Virus record (IMG/VR): IMGVR_UViG_2609460354_000008
Coordinates: 1 to 28,488 of that record
Length of the DNA: 28,488 nt
Direction: 5' to 3' (one strand)
DNA from: a virus
Lineage: Duplodnaviria > Heunggongvirae > Uroviricota > Caudoviricetes
The position numbers and the translations under genes were made by a program. Below are positions 5,770-25,461 of the stretch, piece after piece. The notes beneath the pieces were generated by a model. It was not told the origin of the DNA and searched no databases. It was given only the letters and a program-made list of their open reading frames with translations. How positions within the stretch are numbered: position 1 is the first letter of the stretch; every line of letters begins with the position of its first letter.

Positions 5770-6314
5770 GCCTCCATCGCTTTATCAGGTGTGTCGGTGT
5801 TACTGCCCTGACCGTTCTCTCTGTGACGATGCCCGTTATAAGCAAGCCGCATCGCTGACATGGTGGTGCCGCCGGAGTCGCACAGGTCTTTCACCTGTCC
5901 GGTCACTTCAAGGTCCATTTCAAAACGTGCTTCAGGTGCATTGCGAAACGTGATCGTTTTACCTGCACCGTCCACCACGATCCCCTCCCGGGTCAGCATC
6001 ACGGACTGCCCCTGATCGTCATAGACAGCCACCTCACCCGTCTGCAGCCCTTTCAGGCGGTAGCGCCGGTCCGACACCGTAACAACCACCGCATGAGAAC
6101 GGTCGCCATCCGGAAACAACACCACCGCTTCTGCACCGCTGTTTGCCCTTGCGGTAAAACCGTAGGGTTCAAGATGCTCAACCCCGGCTTTGGGTTCACC
6201 GGCAATCAGGGACACATCCACGGTCTGACATTTCGTGGCGGCACTGATGCTTTTCACCACGGCCCGCCCAATCAGGCCGAGGAGTTGTCGCTGCATGGCT
6301 TCAATCGTCCTCAT
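5766..6314 (-). CDS. Baseplate assembly protein V / spike (Mu gp45-like)
   Basis: 182 aa; position after the hub gene. Confidence 0.7.
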   Translation of the reverse strand: MRTIEAMQRQLLGLIGRAVVKSISAATKCQTVDVSLIAGEPKAGVEHLEPYGFTARANSGAEAVVLFPDGDRSHAVVVTVSDRRYRLKGLQTGEVAVYDDQGQSVMLTREGIVVDGAGKTITFRNAPEARFEMDLEVTGQVKDLCDSGGTTMSAMRLAYNGHRHRENGQGSNTDTPDKAMEA

Positions 6315-7393
6315 CAGAACGGGTCCTCCTGTACTCTGGCTTTTTTCTTTTTCCGCGCGCCGGGATCTTCGGGTTCAGGCAGATAAGCATCAGGCGGGCC
6401 GACACGGATTTCCGTCAGGGTGCCGTTCTGGTCCTGAGTAAACGTGACTTCCGAGACAAGCAGTTCGGTATTATCGAAACCACAGACCGGATCAAAGACA
6501 ATCACCCGCTGGTTGGGCTGCCACAGCGTACCGTTACCCTGTCGCCAGCCCTGCACCACATAGGTGGTTTCATCCGTCCGCGCCGCCCGTTGCCGGGCTT
6601 CAAAGTCAGCACGCGCAATACAGCCTGCCCCCGTGGCCTGCCCTGTCTGCCTGATATACATCGGACGGTAACGGGCAATAAATGCGTCCTCTGTGCGGGC
6701 CCGCAGCGCGGTGGTGGTGGCCTCACCGAAATCATCGTCGTTTCCGGCACGCTGCCCCGCCACCTGGTAAACAGAAAACCGCTCCCGGATACTCTTCTCC
6801 GTATCACAGGAAAGGATGTTTTCCCCAAGTACCAGCGCGGTATGTGCCCGCGTTGAGCCAATACCACCAATCACCAGCCTGCCGTGCGGGTCGTCGTAAG
6901 CCAGCGCCTGCTGCTGACCGAGTATTTTGTTGATTACCTCAATCACCGTTTCACCGTGATCAGGCTGAACATCAGGAATAACACCCGATGGCGCACCGCT
7001 GTTCACCACCTCAATGCCGAAAGGCGCAGCAAGCGCCTGCGCAATCTGCACCAGCGAGCGTCCGTTAAACTGTGTCGGTTCGGCTGCACAGTCAATCAGG
7101 TCAGCCGTCAGACTACGTCCGGCAATACCGGTGCTGACCGAACGGGCATCGTAACGAACGGGAGTCGCCTCCACCCAGCCGGTGATCACCAGCTCATCAC
7201 CAATCAGCACTTCCACTTTTGAACCGTTTTTAATGCGCGGCTGAAGCGTGGTGATACCCTCATCTCCCGGCCACTGGCGAGTGATCTCCACACTGAAATC
7301 CCGCGCCAGCCGTTCAATACCGGCACCGATGCGCACCGATGTCCAGCCATTCCACTCCCGGCCATTTACCCGTAGCGTAACATTGTCGTTCAT
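6314..7393 (-). CDS. Baseplate hub protein (Mu gp44 / P2 gpD-like)
   Basis: 359 aa; position downstream of the DNA circularisation gene in a Mu-type tail module. Confidence 0.65.
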   Translation of the reverse strand: MNDNVTLRVNGREWNGWTSVRIGAGIERLARDFSVEITRQWPGDEGITTLQPRIKNGSKVEVLIGDELVITGWVEATPVRYDARSVSTGIAGRSLTADLIDCAAEPTQFNGRSLVQIAQALAAPFGIEVVNSGAPSGVIPDVQPDHGETVIEVINKILGQQQALAYDDPHGRLVIGGIGSTRAHTALVLGENILSCDTEKSIRERFSVYQVAGQRAGNDDDFGEATTTALRARTEDAFIARYRPMYIRQTGQATGAGCIARADFEARQRAARTDETTYVVQGWRQGNGTLWQPNQRVIVFDPVCGFDNTELLVSEVTFTQDQNGTLTEIRVGPPDAYLPEPEDPGARKKKKARVQEDPF

Positions 7394-20693: not shown

Positions 20694-21044
20694 TCACTTA
20701 AGCCGTTCACGGGCCGTCTTCGCCTTATGACACGGCCAGCACAGACTCTGCAGATTACTGTCGGCATCAGTGCCGCCATGTGCTTTAGGGATGATGTGAT
20801 CAACGGTTTTCGCTTCACGCGCCACACCAGCACGCAGACATAACTGACACAGGCCTTTGTCACGTTGCAGCACACGCACACGGATAACATCCCACTTAGA
20901 ACCATAACCGCGCTGATGACGGGATTGTCCTGACTTGTATTGCTTCCAGCCTTCGCTTTTATGGCTTTCGCAGTAGCCTGACGGGTCTGTCGTGGTATTA
21001 CGGCAGCCGCGAACGCGGCAGGCTTTTGGAGTTCGAGGGGGCAT
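20694..21044 (-). CDS. HNH endonuclease
   Basis: 116 aa with Cys-rich zinc finger and DHIIPKAHGGTD...N...CWPCH motif; adjacent to terminase. Confidence 0.85.
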   Translation of the reverse strand: MPPRTPKACRVRGCRNTTTDPSGYCESHKSEGWKQYKSGQSRHQRGYGSKWDVIRVRVLQRDKGLCQLCLRAGVAREAKTVDHIIPKAHGGTDADSNLQSLCWPCHKAKTARERLK

Positions 21045-21070
21045 AAATATATTCCTGTTCTTTGTCCGGA

Positions 21071-21343
21071 CTATTTGACTGCTGCCAGCAAAGCGTTACG
21101 GCGCATCTCGATACTTCGAATCCCCGCTTTGTCAATATTGCATTGTCCCAACGCCGAAAGCAGGCTCACATTCAGATCCAGACTGGCCCCATAGGTCAGC
21201 GGCTCGGGAATGACTGGCTGGGGAGTTTCAGTAGTCAGGCTTGCTGGCAACGGTACCGCCGGAATCGGTACGTAAACTGTTCGCGTACTTCCGCAACCGG
21301 TCAGCAGCGGCAGCAGGCACAGGACGTGAAGCACAATCATCAT
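21071..21343 (-). CDS. o-spanin (Rz1-like outer membrane lipoprotein)
   Basis: Out-of-frame ORF starting inside Rz; signal peptide with lipobox LLTGC, then Pro-rich sequence. Confidence 0.55.
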   Translation of the reverse strand: MMIVLHVLCLLPLLTGCGSTRTVYVPIPAVPLPASLTTETPQPVIPEPLTYGASLDLNVSLLSALGQCNIDKAGIRSIEMRRNALLAAVK

Positions 21344-21620
21344 CCGCAACAGCCACTTTGATATCTTCCTGGGTTCTCTGTGACTCCAGTGTGATCTGCT
21401 GTTTTGCATGCTGGTTAGCCTCCAGAACTGTATTGACGATTTGCAGTGATTGCAGGACGTTATTGGTAATGACAGTTGCCGATTTGGCATTTTGTACAGC
21501 CTCATCAGCACGTTTCTTTTCGTGCTGATATTTGCTGTAGTAGTGGTTGGCAGACCAGATGAAAGAACCGATGACAGTAAAGAAGAATGCAGCGATAACC
21601 AGCTTATAGCTCAACTTCAT
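21228..21620 (-). CDS. i-spanin (Rz-like)
   Basis: 130 aa; N-terminal TM helix then coiled-coil; immediately downstream of the endolysin. Confidence 0.7.
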   Translation of the reverse strand: MKLSYKLVIAAFFFTVIGSFIWSANHYYSKYQHEKKRADEAVQNAKSATVITNNVLQSLQIVNTVLEANQHAKQQITLESQRTQEDIKVAVADDDCASRPVPAAAADRLRKYANSLRTDSGGTVASKPDY

Positions 21621-22080
21621 TTACCACCCCACCAGCCTCTTTAAACCGGGAAATCAGGTCACTGATTTTATGTTCATACTGACCATAACCTGCACCAGGT
21701 AACGACGCCCAGATATTGCTGCAACGATCGATAGCCTGACGGATATCACCGCGATCAATCATCGGTAAAGCGCCACGCTCTTTAATCTGCTGCAATGCCA
21801 CAGCGTCTTGGCTTTTCGGAGAGAAGTCTTTCAGGCCAAGCTGCTTACGATAGGAATCCCACCAACGGGAAAGAAGCTGGTAGCGCCCGGCTGCTGTTGA
21901 TTTGAGTTTTGGGTTTAGCGTGACAAGTTTGCGAGGGTGATCGGAGTAATCAGTAAATAGCTCTCCGCCTACAATGACGTCATAACCATGATTTCTGGTT
22001 TTCTGCCGTCCGTTATCCGTTCCTTCTGACCATGCCACCATATCGAGGAAAGCCTTACGCTGAGGATTAAGATTTTGCAT
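21604..22080 (-). CDS. Endolysin, lambda R-like lytic transglycosylase
   Basis: QRKAFLDMVAWSEGTDNGRQKTRNHGYDVIVGGELFTDYSDHPRKL... is near-identical to lambda R as recalled. Confidence 0.9.
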   Translation of the reverse strand: MQNLNPQRKAFLDMVAWSEGTDNGRQKTRNHGYDVIVGGELFTDYSDHPRKLVTLNPKLKSTAAGRYQLLSRWWDSYRKQLGLKDFSPKSQDAVALQQIKERGALPMIDRGDIRQAIDRCSNIWASLPGAGYGQYEHKISDLISRFKEAGGVVNEVEL

Positions 22081-22384
22081 TTTTCACCCCTGTCAGTCGT
22101 TCCCAGAAGTACGTCAGTGCAACCGAACCCATCGCACCACTAATCCCCGCTGTCGCGAGAATCATGTAAATACTGAATCCACTTTCGATGCTGATCAGGC
22201 CACCAATAACACCGGTGAATCCTGATACCACTATCTGAGCCAGAGCATTTATCCAACTCCACGTTGCTTTACTCTGCTTCACATCAATCAGGTAACGGAC
22301 AAGCCCGCCCCAGCACGCGAAGATCAGCAGAACGAGCCAGGACATCCCGGCAATGCTCTCTTTTTCGTGCATATGAATAGCCAT
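22067..22384 (-). CDS. Holin with dual-start motif (MAIHMHEK); start set at an internal Met of the track ORF
   Basis: About 105 aa with hydrophobic helices; directly upstream of and overlapping the endolysin. Confidence 0.65.
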   Translation of the reverse strand: MAIHMHEKESIAGMSWLVLLIFACWGGLVRYLIDVKQSKATWSWINALAQIVVSGFTGVIGGLISIESGFSIYMILATAGISGAMGSVALTYFWERLTGVKNAKS

Positions 22385-22413
22385 GATTTTGCCGCCGACG
22401 GATGATCGGGACT

Positions 22414-22911
22414 CTAAATGATAGGGAACAGACTCACGGGGTAATTTAACGACAAAGCACGGAGTTGAAGATCCCCACAAGCCTGGAATAAAAAAGCCAG
22501 CGACAGGCTGGCAATGTGAGGGTAACGCAAAGTGCTTAGAAACAAAAAAAGGCCGCCATCGGCGACCTTCGAGGTATCTAGCGTGCTGGATACTTTCAGC
22601 TTCGCCTTCAATTCAGCGTTGATTTCTTTCAGGCGATCAACATCGTTTTTAAGTTTTTCAATGTCTTGCCCTTTATTATCAAGGTCGCGCTGAAGACCTT
22701 TAATAATTTCTGTTTGGGCCGCCTGTACTTCTCGTGTCGTCTGGAGAGACTTATCAATATCATCAACTTGGTTAATCAAGCGTGTACCGAAAAAGCCTAC
22801 AACTAACATAGTTATCCCAACCATAAAGTTGAGAACCCAGACTTTTGTTCCGGAAGCAGTGTTTGGAGTTTCGTCGATAAAGTGCACCTTATGCCAGTTA
22901 AAGTTACCCAA
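22414..22911 (-). CDS. Hypothetical TM plus coiled-coil ORF in the Q-holin spacer; no ATG (TTG start in track) and it reads through an intrinsic terminator; possibly a remnant or not expressed as drawn
   Basis: Protein-like N-terminal 110 aa (TM helix VWVLNFMVGITMLVVGFFG, heptad-rich KLKNDVDRLKEINAELKAKLK); C-terminal 50 aa look non-coding. Confidence 0.3.
   Translation of the reverse strand: MGNFNWHKVHFIDETPNTASGTKVWVLNFMVGITMLVVGFFGTRLINQVDDIDKSLQTTREVQAAQTEIIKGLQRDLDNKGQDIEKLKNDVDRLKEINAELKAKLKVSSTLDTSKVADGGLFLFLSTLRYPHIASLSLAFLFQACGDLQLRALSLNYPVSLFPII
22545..22575 (-). terminator. Rho-independent terminator on the minus strand (GGUCGCC-GAU-GGCGGCC then U7), tR'-like, upstream of the holin
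   Basis: 7-bp G/C-rich stem with one G-U pair and a 3-nt loop, followed by TTTTTTTGTTT. Confidence 0.6.
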
Positions 22912-22999
22912 CGTCTGCGCAGATCGTTAGATTCGGCAACATTGTAACTGGATAAGGAATAGAAAACCTTGGAATTTTAAGAAGAAACTGATTGATCGA

Positions 23000-23089
23000 T
23001 TATTTAACGAGCGAACACATCCATACACCCCAGACGGGTACTACGACAAAGGCCATGAAATAAGTAACTTTTGCTTGAATGTTTTGCAT
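23000..23089 (-). CDS. Small hydrophobic peptide ORF (29 aa, MQNIQAKVTYFMAFVVVPVWGVWMCSLVK), not in the ORF track
   Basis: ATG preceded by an AAGGAAG RBS about 4-6 nt upstream; a single TM-like segment; in the AT-rich Q-to-lysis spacer. Confidence 0.3.
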   Translation of the reverse strand: MQNIQAKVTYFMAFVVVPVWGVWMCSLVK

Positions 23090-23370
23090 TTCGCTTCCTT
23101 AGCAGTCCGATAAGTACTGTCTGCTCATCCAACCTAACGAATGTAGATCAGAATGACAAGTCTTTCGCGCTAATTTCAATTTGATATCTGTTCGTAAACA
23201 TGATGGCGCGAAATATTACGCATGAAGTGCTTCTACATCAACATAAAAGTTACTTTTTTTGTGTTCACAGCATGTAAAGTAAAAGCCCCGCACGATGGCG
23301 AGGCTGTTAATTCTTTGTCGACCAACAAAGCTATGGCGACGATATCAGATTTACATGAAATATAAGCGTT

Positions 23371-24060
23371 TCAGTTCGGTTTTGCAAGACTTACGTGCGA
23401 ACTTGTCGCCTTTTGTTGTGAACGTGATCGCGTTACTGAGATAAGCGCACCGCTATCGAGTCGCATAAAGCAGCTACGCATTGCCAACCAGTGAGGCAGG
23501 TATGTCTCTGTCCAGGTGGATTTCGCCACGCCAACCAGTTCCGCCAGCTTCTGGTATTCGTAGGCATCTTTCCCGACCAACCCTGCTTTGACATCCTGCG
23601 CTGCCAGCCATATCAGCTTCTTCAGGCGCTCCATGGTCTTGCCTGCCACCCTCTTCGCGCCGAGATACCCCCTGAATTCAGACCACGCCCACTGGGTGAT
23701 CGCCACCTGGTATTCAAAGCTGACGTTTTCACTGTAACTCCACAGCAACCACGCTTTCTGATGTTCTTCGAGAGACAGAACCGCGCGGCGCCATGAAGAT
23801 GTTGAGAACTCAACCTGGCTGACCAGTGCAATGGATGAACCTTTTGCGTACGACTGCTTACCGGAAATCGGCGGATTATCCAGCGTAATCATCTTGCCCG
23901 TTACCTCATCCAGAATGCGCGGCTTCTTTCGTTTATATGTACCAGTATCAAATTGTGCATGCTCCAGCCAGGCTTCAAGCTGGCCTTTCGTTGCTCCGCT
24001 CAAATCAGCAGTAGCCACAATGAGTTGCTCGCGGACATACTGTAAATATTGGGTATTCAT
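23371..24060 (-). CDS. Putative late-gene antiterminator Q (long Q-type); assignment by position
   Basis: 229 aa; translationally coupled to ylcG (ATGA overlap), downstream of rusA and upstream of the lysis cassette. Confidence 0.45.
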   Translation of the reverse strand: MNTQYLQYVREQLIVATADLSGATKGQLEAWLEHAQFDTGTYKRKKPRILDEVTGKMITLDNPPISGKQSYAKGSSIALVSQVEFSTSSWRRAVLSLEEHQKAWLLWSYSENVSFEYQVAITQWAWSEFRGYLGAKRVAGKTMERLKKLIWLAAQDVKAGLVGKDAYEYQKLAELVGVAKSTWTETYLPHWLAMRSCFMRLDSGALISVTRSRSQQKATSSHVSLAKPN

Positions 24061-24197
24061 GCGGCAGCTCCTTTCAGTGTTTTGGCGTAATTCTTCAGTA
24101 TCCGGTAATCGGTCAAAACAGAACCGGGGAAACGATATAAGCGCAGGCGCATCCAGCGGTGGCGAAGACGTTCTGCCATATAAGACTCAAACATCAT
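24057..24197 (-). CDS. ylcG: YlcG-like small protein (46 aa), not in the ORF track
   Basis: [46 protein letters not shown]; start overlaps the rusA stop and stop overlaps the Q start. Confidence 0.6.
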
Positions 24198-24556
24198 TCA
24201 TTCCCCAGTTCGGTGATGGTCAGCTCCAGCTTCCCACCTTTGGTAACGGGCATCTTCACAACACGGTAATCAACGACCTGAACATCATCCAGCCAGAAAC
24301 CTGCTTTGGTGAGTGCGTCAAAAGCGGCTTTTTGCAGATTATCCAGGTCACGGCGACGGCGATCCGGCATGTGGCACTCAATACGGATTTTCACAGGCAT
24401 AGCCAGGCCGATATCCAGCATTGCGTTTTTAATGATTCGGGTGACGTTATCGCGGTATGCCTGCCCTTCTGCGCTGATGTGTGTGCGCCCGCGATTATGG
24501 CGGTAATAGCGGTTATTGCTCGGAGGCCAGGGTAGTGTGATGTGGTAAGTATTCAC
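24194..24556 (-). CDS. rusA: RusA Holliday junction resolvase (GTG start at [12 protein letters not shown])
   Basis: Near-identical to E. coli RusA along its length as recalled ([21 protein letters not shown]...[27 protein letters not shown]). Confidence 0.9.
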
Positions 24557-24843
24557 GCCTTGATTACCCCCTCTTTCAGCCAGATAACCTGCGTTCTCGC
24601 CATACCTTCCAGCGCGCATTCTTTTGCGTACTCAGCATCGACAAAATGCGTGCGGCGGTCGATTTCGTCGTGACAGGCAGAACAGGCAATGGTGGCAATA
24701 AGGTCTGGCGGTTTAATACCGGTGCCGCACAATCCAGCCAGCCGGATATGTGCCAGTACAGACGTTTCAGGGTTGCCATTACATACGCCAGTGATTCTTA
24801 CCTGGCATTCCCGACCACGCGCTGCTTTTCTCAAATCAGCCAT
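24553..24843 (-). CDS. ybcO: YbcO-like Cys-rich putative nuclease (DUF1364-like); start set at [10 protein letters not shown]
   Basis: Cysteine-rich protein; DLP12-like nin-region order NinB-NinE-YbcO-RusA. Confidence 0.7.
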
Positions 24844-25006
24844 GATTCCTCCTTGCTGCCAGTCGCAACCATTTTTTATCAACCAGGCTAGCGGTATATC
24901 CGAGCAGTGTTGGTATTTCGGATGGCTTCAGCTCAGGCTTACGCTTACGACGATTTGGTACTCTGTAGATGTGTCCGTTCATGACACGAATAAGCGGTGT
25001 AGCCAT
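24836..25006 (-). CDS. ninE: NinE-like protein (56 aa), not in the ORF track
   Basis: [56 protein letters not shown]; ATG overlaps the NinB stop (TAATG) and stop overlaps the ybcO start. Confidence 0.6.
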   Translation of the reverse strand: MATPLIRVMNGHIYRVPNRRKRKPELKPSEIPTLLGYTASLVDKKWLRLAARRNHG

Positions 25007-25461
25007 TACGCCTCCTGCTTGTCGCGCAGCAGCTGGAACTCGCAGCTCTGCGGAATAGTCAGGTGGCAGCCAATATTCATCGCCCAGGCTTCAACCTTAC
25101 ACAGGAAGACATACATCTCTCCGGTATCAAGATCGGAAGTATGGCGTAACGACTGGATAGTAGTGATTTCGCCGGTTACGACATCAACCAGGTCCTTGGT
25201 TTCATAACCGAGGTATGTGTGTTTGAGAGCATCTTTTACCCATGCTGCGGTAGCGAACGATTTCCCCCTGCTGACGAGGTATTCACTGATTTCGCTGTAC
25301 CACATGTGGCTGAGTGCATTCTGGGAAAGACTGCGTTTCTCACGCCACGGTTTAAGCACCATGCGAAAGCATTTTCCGTCCTCCAGATAAGGCTGGATCT
25401 GCTGGCCGATAGCGATGAAGTTGCCGCGATGCAATTTGATACCATCTTGTGGGAGGTTCAC
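25006..25461 (-). CDS. ninB: NinB-family recombination protein (YbcN-like); GTG start with GGAGG RBS
   Basis: 151 aa; matches the DLP12 YbcN/NinB sequence as recalled; first gene of the nin cluster. Confidence 0.8.

Follow-up and report, generated by a model that had tools for sequence, protein, structure and literature searches.

A 29-codon open reading frame (ORF) on the minus strand, downstream of the antitermination gene Q, is a real, evolutionarily conserved and unannotated gene for a tiny, predicted membrane peptide. The gene was studied in a 28,488-nucleotide stretch of viral DNA, called the window here, and in homologous loci of E. coli, Klebsiella, Kosakonia, Enterobacter and viral and metagenome contigs. 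Together with a second, downstream cistron, the partner gene, which encodes a predicted membrane protein, it makes up a mobile cassette. The features of the cassette and its surroundings in the window are listed in Table 1.

Table 1. Features of the Q-to-holin region of the window, in the order in which they are met on the minus strand.
Feature	Position	Strand	Remarks
Antitermination protein Q, 229 aa	24060..23371	-	PF06323, E = 8e-92
Promoter-like TTGCAA-17-TATATT	23387..23359	-	Overlaps 3' end of Q; positioned to start the IsrJ-like RNA
IsrJ-family RNA, 74 nt	23355..23282	-	Rfam RF01393
Intrinsic terminator ending the IsrJ-like RNA	23305..23284	-	Terminator scan
P2, TTGATG-17-TAATAT	23241..23213	-	Candidate sigma-70 promoter, followed by GC-rich TTCGCGCC
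Small hairpin GCAG...CTGC	23102..23124	-	Ends 1 nt 5' of the Shine-Dalgarno sequence
Shine-Dalgarno AAGGAAG	23100..23094	-	4 nt ahead of the ATG
Small-protein gene	23000..23089	-	29 codons and TAA; product MQNIQAKVTYFMAFVVVPVWGVWMCSLVK
Anti-SD CCTTAT	22957..22952	-	Predicted pairing with the partner-gene SD
-10-like TACAAT	22946..22941	-	TAnAAT invariant in 15/15 aligned cassettes
Block CTAACGATCTGCGCAGACGTTGG	22908..22930	-	Stem-loop and 10-bp DNA palindrome
Partner gene	22414..22911	-	Predicted single-pass membrane protein with coiled coil
Partner-gene SD ATAAGG	22892..22887	-	Conserved
Intrinsic terminator inside the partner frame	22548..22570	-	No in-frame stop before it
Second terminator-like hairpin	22496..22512	-	Closes the cassette, upstream of the holin gene
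Holin gene, LydA-type	22372..22067	-	After the second terminator

The small open reading frame and its conservation

The frame starts at an ATG (23089..23087) and stops at a TAA (23002..23000), both on the minus strand, in a gap of 459 bp between Q and the next ORF (22912..23370) with a GC content of 39.4%, against 51.8% for the window. The original prediction had described a 29-codon ORF with a ribosome-binding site and one TM-like segment in an AT-rich spacer of about 460 bp; it left the strand unstated, and all of these features proved to be real. The best 19-residue Kyte-Doolittle mean of the window peptide is 1.94, a TM-like value. Taken alone the ORF would only be suggestive, since 5.9% of spacers resampled with a first-order Markov model had an ATG-initiated ORF of 29 codons or more preceded by an SD-like pentamer. 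It is more than a product of chance because the frame is conserved across loci. The ORF is not annotated in three RefSeq E. coli chromosomes that carry the same DNA (99.8–100% identity).

Near and distant DNA searches recovered the cassette or its spacer from three of 5426 complete E. coli genomes; the spacer was absent from all 50,697 phage records searched, and two scans of species-representative genomes gave no match. As the DNA matches were about 100% identical and carried no comparative signal, homologous loci were reached via the neighbouring 157/165-aa protein. This search returned homologues and contigs from Klebsiella, Kosakonia and Enterobacter, with the small ORF upstream in every one. 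Scans with two further keys, a 23-nt block identical in the first loci and a degenerate pattern of the peptide C-terminus, contributed 20 viral and nine metagenome loci. A full HMMER search with the conserved part of the partner found just 17 cluster representatives among 1.84 billion proteins, and the contigs of six more distant representatives again contained the small ORF. The collection comprises 49 loci with 13 peptide variants, all of 29 codons except for one of 30.

No frame-breaking indel was found in any of the 13 variants. The start codon is ATG or TTG, and an AAGGA core lies 5–9 nt before it in every variant. The frame and its ribosome-binding site, for which the original prediction had proposed a comparison of related prophages, are thus firmly kept in homologous regions. 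Synonymous divergence exceeded non-synonymous divergence in 66 of 66 allele pairs (means pS 0.57, pN 0.22). Between the E. coli and Kosakonia alleles, 13 synonymous and two non-synonymous differences were counted (pS 0.74, pN 0.03; binomial P = 9.5e-8), between loci L011 and L012 eight and three, and five distinct alleles of one of the two clades of cassettes (clade B) encode one and the same peptide. Variable columns are distributed 20/9/25 over codon positions 1, 2 and 3. Over a nucleotide divergence of approximately 35–40% both length and stop position are held, and an alternative frame is interrupted by stops in clade B. Codons 2–11 are constrained as well (four synonymous versus two non-synonymous differences, E. 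coli versus Kosakonia), which indicates that codon 1, rather than the conserved Met12, is the point of initiation. With its frame, length and start context conserved and its product under purifying selection, the ORF behaves as a protein-coding gene.

Eight residues are invariant (M1, I4, Q5, Y10, P18, W20, W23 and S26) and give the family motif M-x-x-I-Q-x4-Y-x7-P-x-W-x2-W-x2-S, the C-terminal half being better conserved than the N-terminal half. The remaining substitutions exchange one hydrophobic residue for another and preserve a single hydrophobic stretch of TM length, with 19-residue Kyte-Doolittle means of 1.8–2.0 in the seven variants scored.

Gene calls for the peptide exist from two sources, namely the nr entries DAM68783.1 and DAZ79873.1 (hypothetical proteins, Caudoviricetes) and a 29-aa call in L045. 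An exact look-up found the clade-B peptide only, as a virome hypothetical protein. No Pfam family matched any of six peptide variants (E <= 1 or E <= 10), and NCBIfam and PADLOC yielded no family for two variants at E <= 10. Matches to PHROG were marginal (E = 0.014–0.044), those to PDB chains in a sequence search weak or marginal at most, and the peptide strings were absent from the literature searched. A likeness to PspB, noticed by eye as a VLPIW.WL-like motif, was rejected as non-significant; Pfam gave no match, and BLASTP of one variant against the E. coli PspB sequence gave 8/19 identities with a gap, at a single-comparison E of 0.006 for a pair picked post hoc. Identity as a lipoprotein (o-spanin) was rejected, the cysteine not being conserved. 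The peptide founds a new family that the databases leave unannotated.

Promoters, leader and structured spacer

On the minus strand, Q is followed by a promoter-like site, the IsrJ RNA with its terminator, P2, a leader, the small ORF, a structured spacer, the partner gene, two terminators and the holin gene. The match to RF01393 scored 64.9 bits against a gathering threshold of 37 and covers model positions 1–75 of 75; this RNA, with a predicted start near 23352 and a predicted 3' end at about 23280, is not annotated in the RefSeq records viewed. In the window, L003 and L026 it stands behind a Q of the PF06323 type, irrespective of the clade of the cassette downstream. As the RNA co-segregates with this type of Q in three loci, we interpret it as the terminated transcript of a Q-linked late promoter, and it looks like the late-promoter short transcript of that Q type, analogous to the 6S RNA of lambda. 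L041 has a lambda-type Q, and here a late promoter and terminator of lambda-like appearance come between Q and P2. The original prediction had located the late promoter in the spacer; a Q-linked promoter is indeed present, but upstream of the ORF and beside Q, where it drives the IsrJ-family RNA up to its terminator. Similarity to other E. coli prophages ends directly past this terminator. P2 itself was considered as a Q-dependent late promoter and rejected, as late promoter/terminator units of IsrJ or lambda type lie between Q and P2 and segregate with the type of Q.

P2 is the sole promoter-like site conserved in all ten distinct cassette sequences (8–11 of 12 consensus matches), although the sequence of the spacer varies, and on this conservation it is presumably an active promoter. 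Its predicted start near 23204–23206 leaves a 5' leader of about 115 nt. The window version matches the consensus at 8 of 12 positions only and was missed by a standard promoter scan; in clade B the site reads TTGATA-16-TATAAT with a GC-rich GCGCC after it. A matching site could also be read in L041, L045, L046, L047 and L048, and L021 and L044 have other sequence where P2 would stand. In L044 (2150–2240), P2 is replaced by tandem repeats, four copies of GGTTCTAGAT and then AAAACGATACT-like units, upstream of the 30-codon version of the ORF; by their sequence these repeats look like iterated binding sites. The GC-rich discriminator after P2 (23204–23218, minus strand) is TTCGCGCC in the window and GCCGCGCC in clade B. 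We take it to resemble that of stringently controlled promoters such as rrnB P1, a likeness that hints at growth-rate or ppGpp control.

The only conserved helix in the leader is a hairpin of 4 bp, the second pair of which covaries (C-G, U-G, U-A), and the SD is unpaired in the consensus fold. Leader and ORF together were predicted to fold at −41.6 kcal/mol, compared to a mean of −46.6 kcal/mol for shuffled sequences (z = +1.17). With its SD exposed, the small ORF should need no activation step for translation. Compared with the window, leaders of clade B (e.g. L012, L013, L020, L026 and L027) have 23 inserted nucleotides between P2 and the small ORF, which form two small hairpins with compensatory changes (UUACCU..AGGUAA; CGGAU..AUCCG / CGGU..ACCG).

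Beyond the ORF, the 143-nt intergenic RNA is more stable than its shuffles (z = −2.55). The first 40 nt past the stop are poor in G, especially in clade B (by eye), and about 45 nt separate the stop from the anti-SD arm. This arm and the partner-gene SD are predicted to form a CCUUAU/AUAAGG helix, with 86% of cells paired and little covariation, and at its apex stands the hairpin of the 23-nt block (22930..22908). In loci that were recovered without the block as a search key it is identical, barring a few variants, and distant loci have compensated versions with a CUGAC..GUCGG stem and TGCGGCCGCA as apex. The hairpin helix is 99% paired across 15 distinct sequences, and three of its pairs are altered on both sides (A-U to G-C, C-G to G-C and U-A to C-G). 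Its covariation score was attained by none of 500 shuffles and collapsed in slid controls. The apex is a perfect 10-bp palindrome, TCTGCGCAGA in the window and TGCGGCCGCA, a NotI site, elsewhere; with perfect symmetry in the DNA of both versions, the apex could also be bound by a protein. The TAnAAT motif lies 10 nt upstream of the hairpin. It may, judging by its sequence, be part of a second promoter (P3) for the partner gene, giving transcripts without the anti-SD from a predicted start near 22934–22936; no convincing −35 box was found for it.

The partner gene and the mobility of the cassette

The partner gene adjoins the small ORF in every locus examined and follows it after about 110–135 nt. 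Its conserved part extends over approximately 22878..22555, and what lies beyond the terminator is an unconserved tail. In RefSeq the protein is 157 aa long in one genome and 131 aa in another. The AlphaFold model consists of a single long helix (residues 7–103, mean pLDDT 79), and the protein models as a TM segment with a coiled coil. In PHROG, Rz-like spanins were matched weakly, at E = 1.6e-4 to 5e-4. Readthrough or frameshifting that would fuse the two genes was rejected: the spacer measures 147–149 nt to a fixed codon-aligned motif in the partner, and the relative frame differs among variants.

The expression signals of the partner are unusual at both ends. Its frame passes without a stop through the intrinsic terminator in 11 of 11 distinct variants from both clades. 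The two clades differ in the sequence of the terminator hairpin, and the tails after it are unconserved and 7–55 residues long; in the window, hairpin and T-run encode K-V-A-D-G-G-L-F. A transcript that ends at this terminator, with a predicted 3' end at about 22545, would be a non-stop mRNA, as no in-frame stop precedes it, and the sequence implies that the partner mRNA is non-stop unless the polymerase is antiterminated. At the other end (22876–22892, minus strand) no ATG, GTG or TTG start is universally conserved. Most partner variants have an AUC or AUA 9–10 nt past the conserved SD (A)UAAGG, and in L020 and L026 only AUA or CUG can serve as starts, since the frame is closed by a stop directly upstream. 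From these sequences, the partner may begin at a natural non-canonical initiation codon.

The cassette was found behind at least six types of Q (PF06323, PF06530 of 138 aa and of 166 aa, DUF1133, PF03589 of the lambda type, and a 260–271-aa protein) and ahead of holins of the families holin_3_3, 2_1, 3_1, and 8 with 3_7. It co-occurs with complete Rz/Rz1 pairs, in some loci a methyltransferase gene stands between cassette and holin, and a homology breakpoint lies directly after the Q-linked terminator. One unit, with its own P2 (10/10) and with terminators after the second gene (11/11), is thus met in differing phage backgrounds among unrelated flanking genes. By its sequence, the mobile two-gene cassette qualifies as a moron: a promoter and terminators come with it, and its neighbours are shuffled. 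It occupies a known hot spot for insertions, the interval between Q and the holin gene. Lambda bor and lom, HK97 gp15 and stx in the Q-S interval are likewise self-contained units of lower GC content in varied phage backgrounds; the cassette differs from them by having two cistrons, of which the first is only 29 codons long and the second has unusual expression signals.

Along 20694–25461 (minus strand) the early side of the window prophage is DLP12-like (ybcN, ninE, ybcO, rusA, ylcG, Q). Downstream, the LydA-type holin gene is followed by genes for a GH24 lysozyme, a DUF2570 Rz with embedded Rz1, an HNH endonuclease and a P27-type small terminase. In L020, a clade-B phage, the cassette is separated from the lysis genes by the small RNA STnc100 and two tRNA genes (6299–6845). 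The interval is, to judge from its gene content, a hot spot for cargo, as L020 again illustrates.

Possible roles of the peptide

The peptide is probably a small inner-membrane protein and the first cistron of a moron, made from P2 in the lysogen and from a Q-dependent transcript after induction, and acting on a specific membrane partner, which is probably the coiled-coil protein. In this scheme the cassette belongs to lambdoid prophages of Enterobacteriaceae, where it is flanked by the Q-linked promoter/terminator unit and the lysis genes. P2 would supply the peptide in the lysogen, and readthrough of Q-modified polymerase from the late promoter would supply it once more, at a high level. The peptide would insert into the membrane and bind a defined partner there, most likely the co-inherited protein with TM segment and coiled coil, or else a membrane protein of the host. 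A defined partner is proposed because the core IQ..Y..P.W..W..S is sequence-specific; generic membrane damage is less likely. The peptide might, for example, exclude other phages, modulate a membrane protein of the host or control the partner protein. The rarity of the cassette, the weak P2 of the window and the replacement of P2 in L021 and L044 count against this explanation.

Small regulatory inner-membrane proteins may be the best analogy for the action of the peptide. MgtS, AcrZ, KdpF, PmrR and CydX have about 30–50 residues, one TM helix and conserved aromatic, Pro or Gly residues, and bind a larger membrane protein. The peptide has no homology to proteins of the MgtS type, and its gene is phage-borne and mobile.

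A regulatory leader peptide, where the act of translation or arrest of the nascent chain controls downstream transcription (e.g. through access of Rho) or translation, is possible though unlikely. Control of this kind is exemplified by tnaC, and a chain of 29 residues would not yet have left the ribosomal tunnel when translation terminates. The ORF stands 5' to a gene with a predicted sequestered SD, its best-conserved residues P18, W20, W23 and S26 lie towards the C-terminus, which is also the case in arrest peptides, and the G-poor 40 nt after the stop, in clade B especially, would also suit such control. Against this, the stop is too distant from the anti-SD arm for a terminating ribosome to melt it, and the −10-like element in the spacer suggests a separate promoter for the partner. 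Moreover, the N-terminal IQ and Y10 are invariant too, and changes between the clades are hydrophobic-for-hydrophobic with the TM-length segment kept, as for a membrane helix.

There is a precedent for a leader peptide beside a Q gene, orf45 in the isrK locus of Gifsy-1 (PMC4825925). In this locus, antQ-isrK-orf45-anrP-isrJ, a short terminated RNA directly downstream of a Q-like gene precedes a small ORF and then a larger gene that is untranslatable in the long transcript, and orf45 serves the translational activation of anrP via IsrK RNA (PMC4825925). The window has the same layout and also an IsrJ-family RNA. However, orf45 has 45 codons and is unrelated; the ORF in the window has a free SD, encodes a conserved peptide and lies about 110–135 nt from the next gene.

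The cassette as a whole might be a gated membrane effector, of which the peptide is the constitutive component or antidote, acting as a sensor-effector for phage late transcription or for translation stress; we regard this reading as speculative and rather unlikely. The partner would be held off in the lysogen by its buried SD, its AUA/AUC start and a stopless, terminated transcript that leads to tmRNA tagging. It would accumulate only with terminator-resistant polymerase, due to Q or to the antiterminator of an incoming phage, or when ribosome rescue fails. If true, the cassette would be, for example, an abortive-infection or exclusion device. Messengers without a stop codon are known from arfA and brfA (PMC3989581, PMC6881298). 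The partner frame likewise enters a hairpin and terminator, and a non-stop mRNA subject to tmRNA is predicted. However, ArfA and BrfA are ribosome-rescue factors, and the partner is an unrelated membrane coiled-coil protein.

A type I toxin, a peptide that depolarises or permeabilises the membrane and is restrained by an antisense or trans-acting small RNA, was suggested by the original prediction from a resemblance to TisB, DinQ and Ldr. TisB, ZorO, ShoB and Ldr share a small size, a single TM segment, an own promoter and a long leader. The E. coli systems TisB/IstR-1, DinQ/AgrB, Ldr/Rdl and ZorO/OrzO have peptides of 19–35 residues with one hydrophobic helix, their own promoter and an untranslated leader of some 100 nt or more, and the ORF compares well, with 29 aa, one TM-length stretch, its own promoter and a leader of about 115–145 nt. 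The resemblance does not extend beyond size and hydrophobicity, and the identification is improbable. No toxin family in Pfam or NCBIfam was matched at E <= 10. Nothing resembling a promoter or a terminator was found on the opposite strand over 22350..23450, and the two clades have no antisense promoter in common; an antisense terminator-like hairpin is present in some clade-B leaders, and in others its T-run is lost. Leader and ORF are no stabler than shuffles, with the SD unpaired and not masked. The core of the peptide is invariant and sequence-specific, not of a generic amphipathic character, and its constant and obligatory companion is a protein gene, not an RNA gene. The known systems occupy chromosomal SOS or intergenic loci, and the small ORF is part of a phage late operon.

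It is also doubtful, to much the same degree, that peptide and coiled-coil protein are late-phase lysis accessories, made only from the Q-dependent late transcript, that tune the holin or spanin. The small ORF is the first frame past the late terminator, immediately upstream of the holin, and the PHROG matches of the partner point to spanins. However, the holins that follow belong to unrelated families, complete Rz/Rz1 pairs are already there, the intervening methyltransferase gene separates the cassette from the holin in some loci, and the cassette comes with a conserved promoter and with terminators of its own. Finally, that the ORF is untranslated and its conservation that of an RNA or DNA element can hardly be maintained, even though adjacent non-coding blocks are strongly conserved as well and ORF and SD co-occur by chance in about 6% of random spacers, given the codon periodicity, the excess of pS over pN in all pairs, the length and stop kept over such divergence with another frame closed in clade B, and the fact that no stable structure is predicted over the ORF.

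The small-protein family is new and falls within known kinds, the small membrane proteins and the phage morons. Small membrane proteins are systematically overlooked in annotation, and the peptide provides an unusually clean comparative case. The interval between Q and the lysis genes, home of Shiga toxin and other conversion genes, also holds a mobile two-gene cassette, the expression signals of which are unusual enough to merit experiments. A promoter beyond the late terminator, a covarying hairpin and a stopless partner gene offer testable ideas on how prophage cargo is expressed in lysogeny versus induction.
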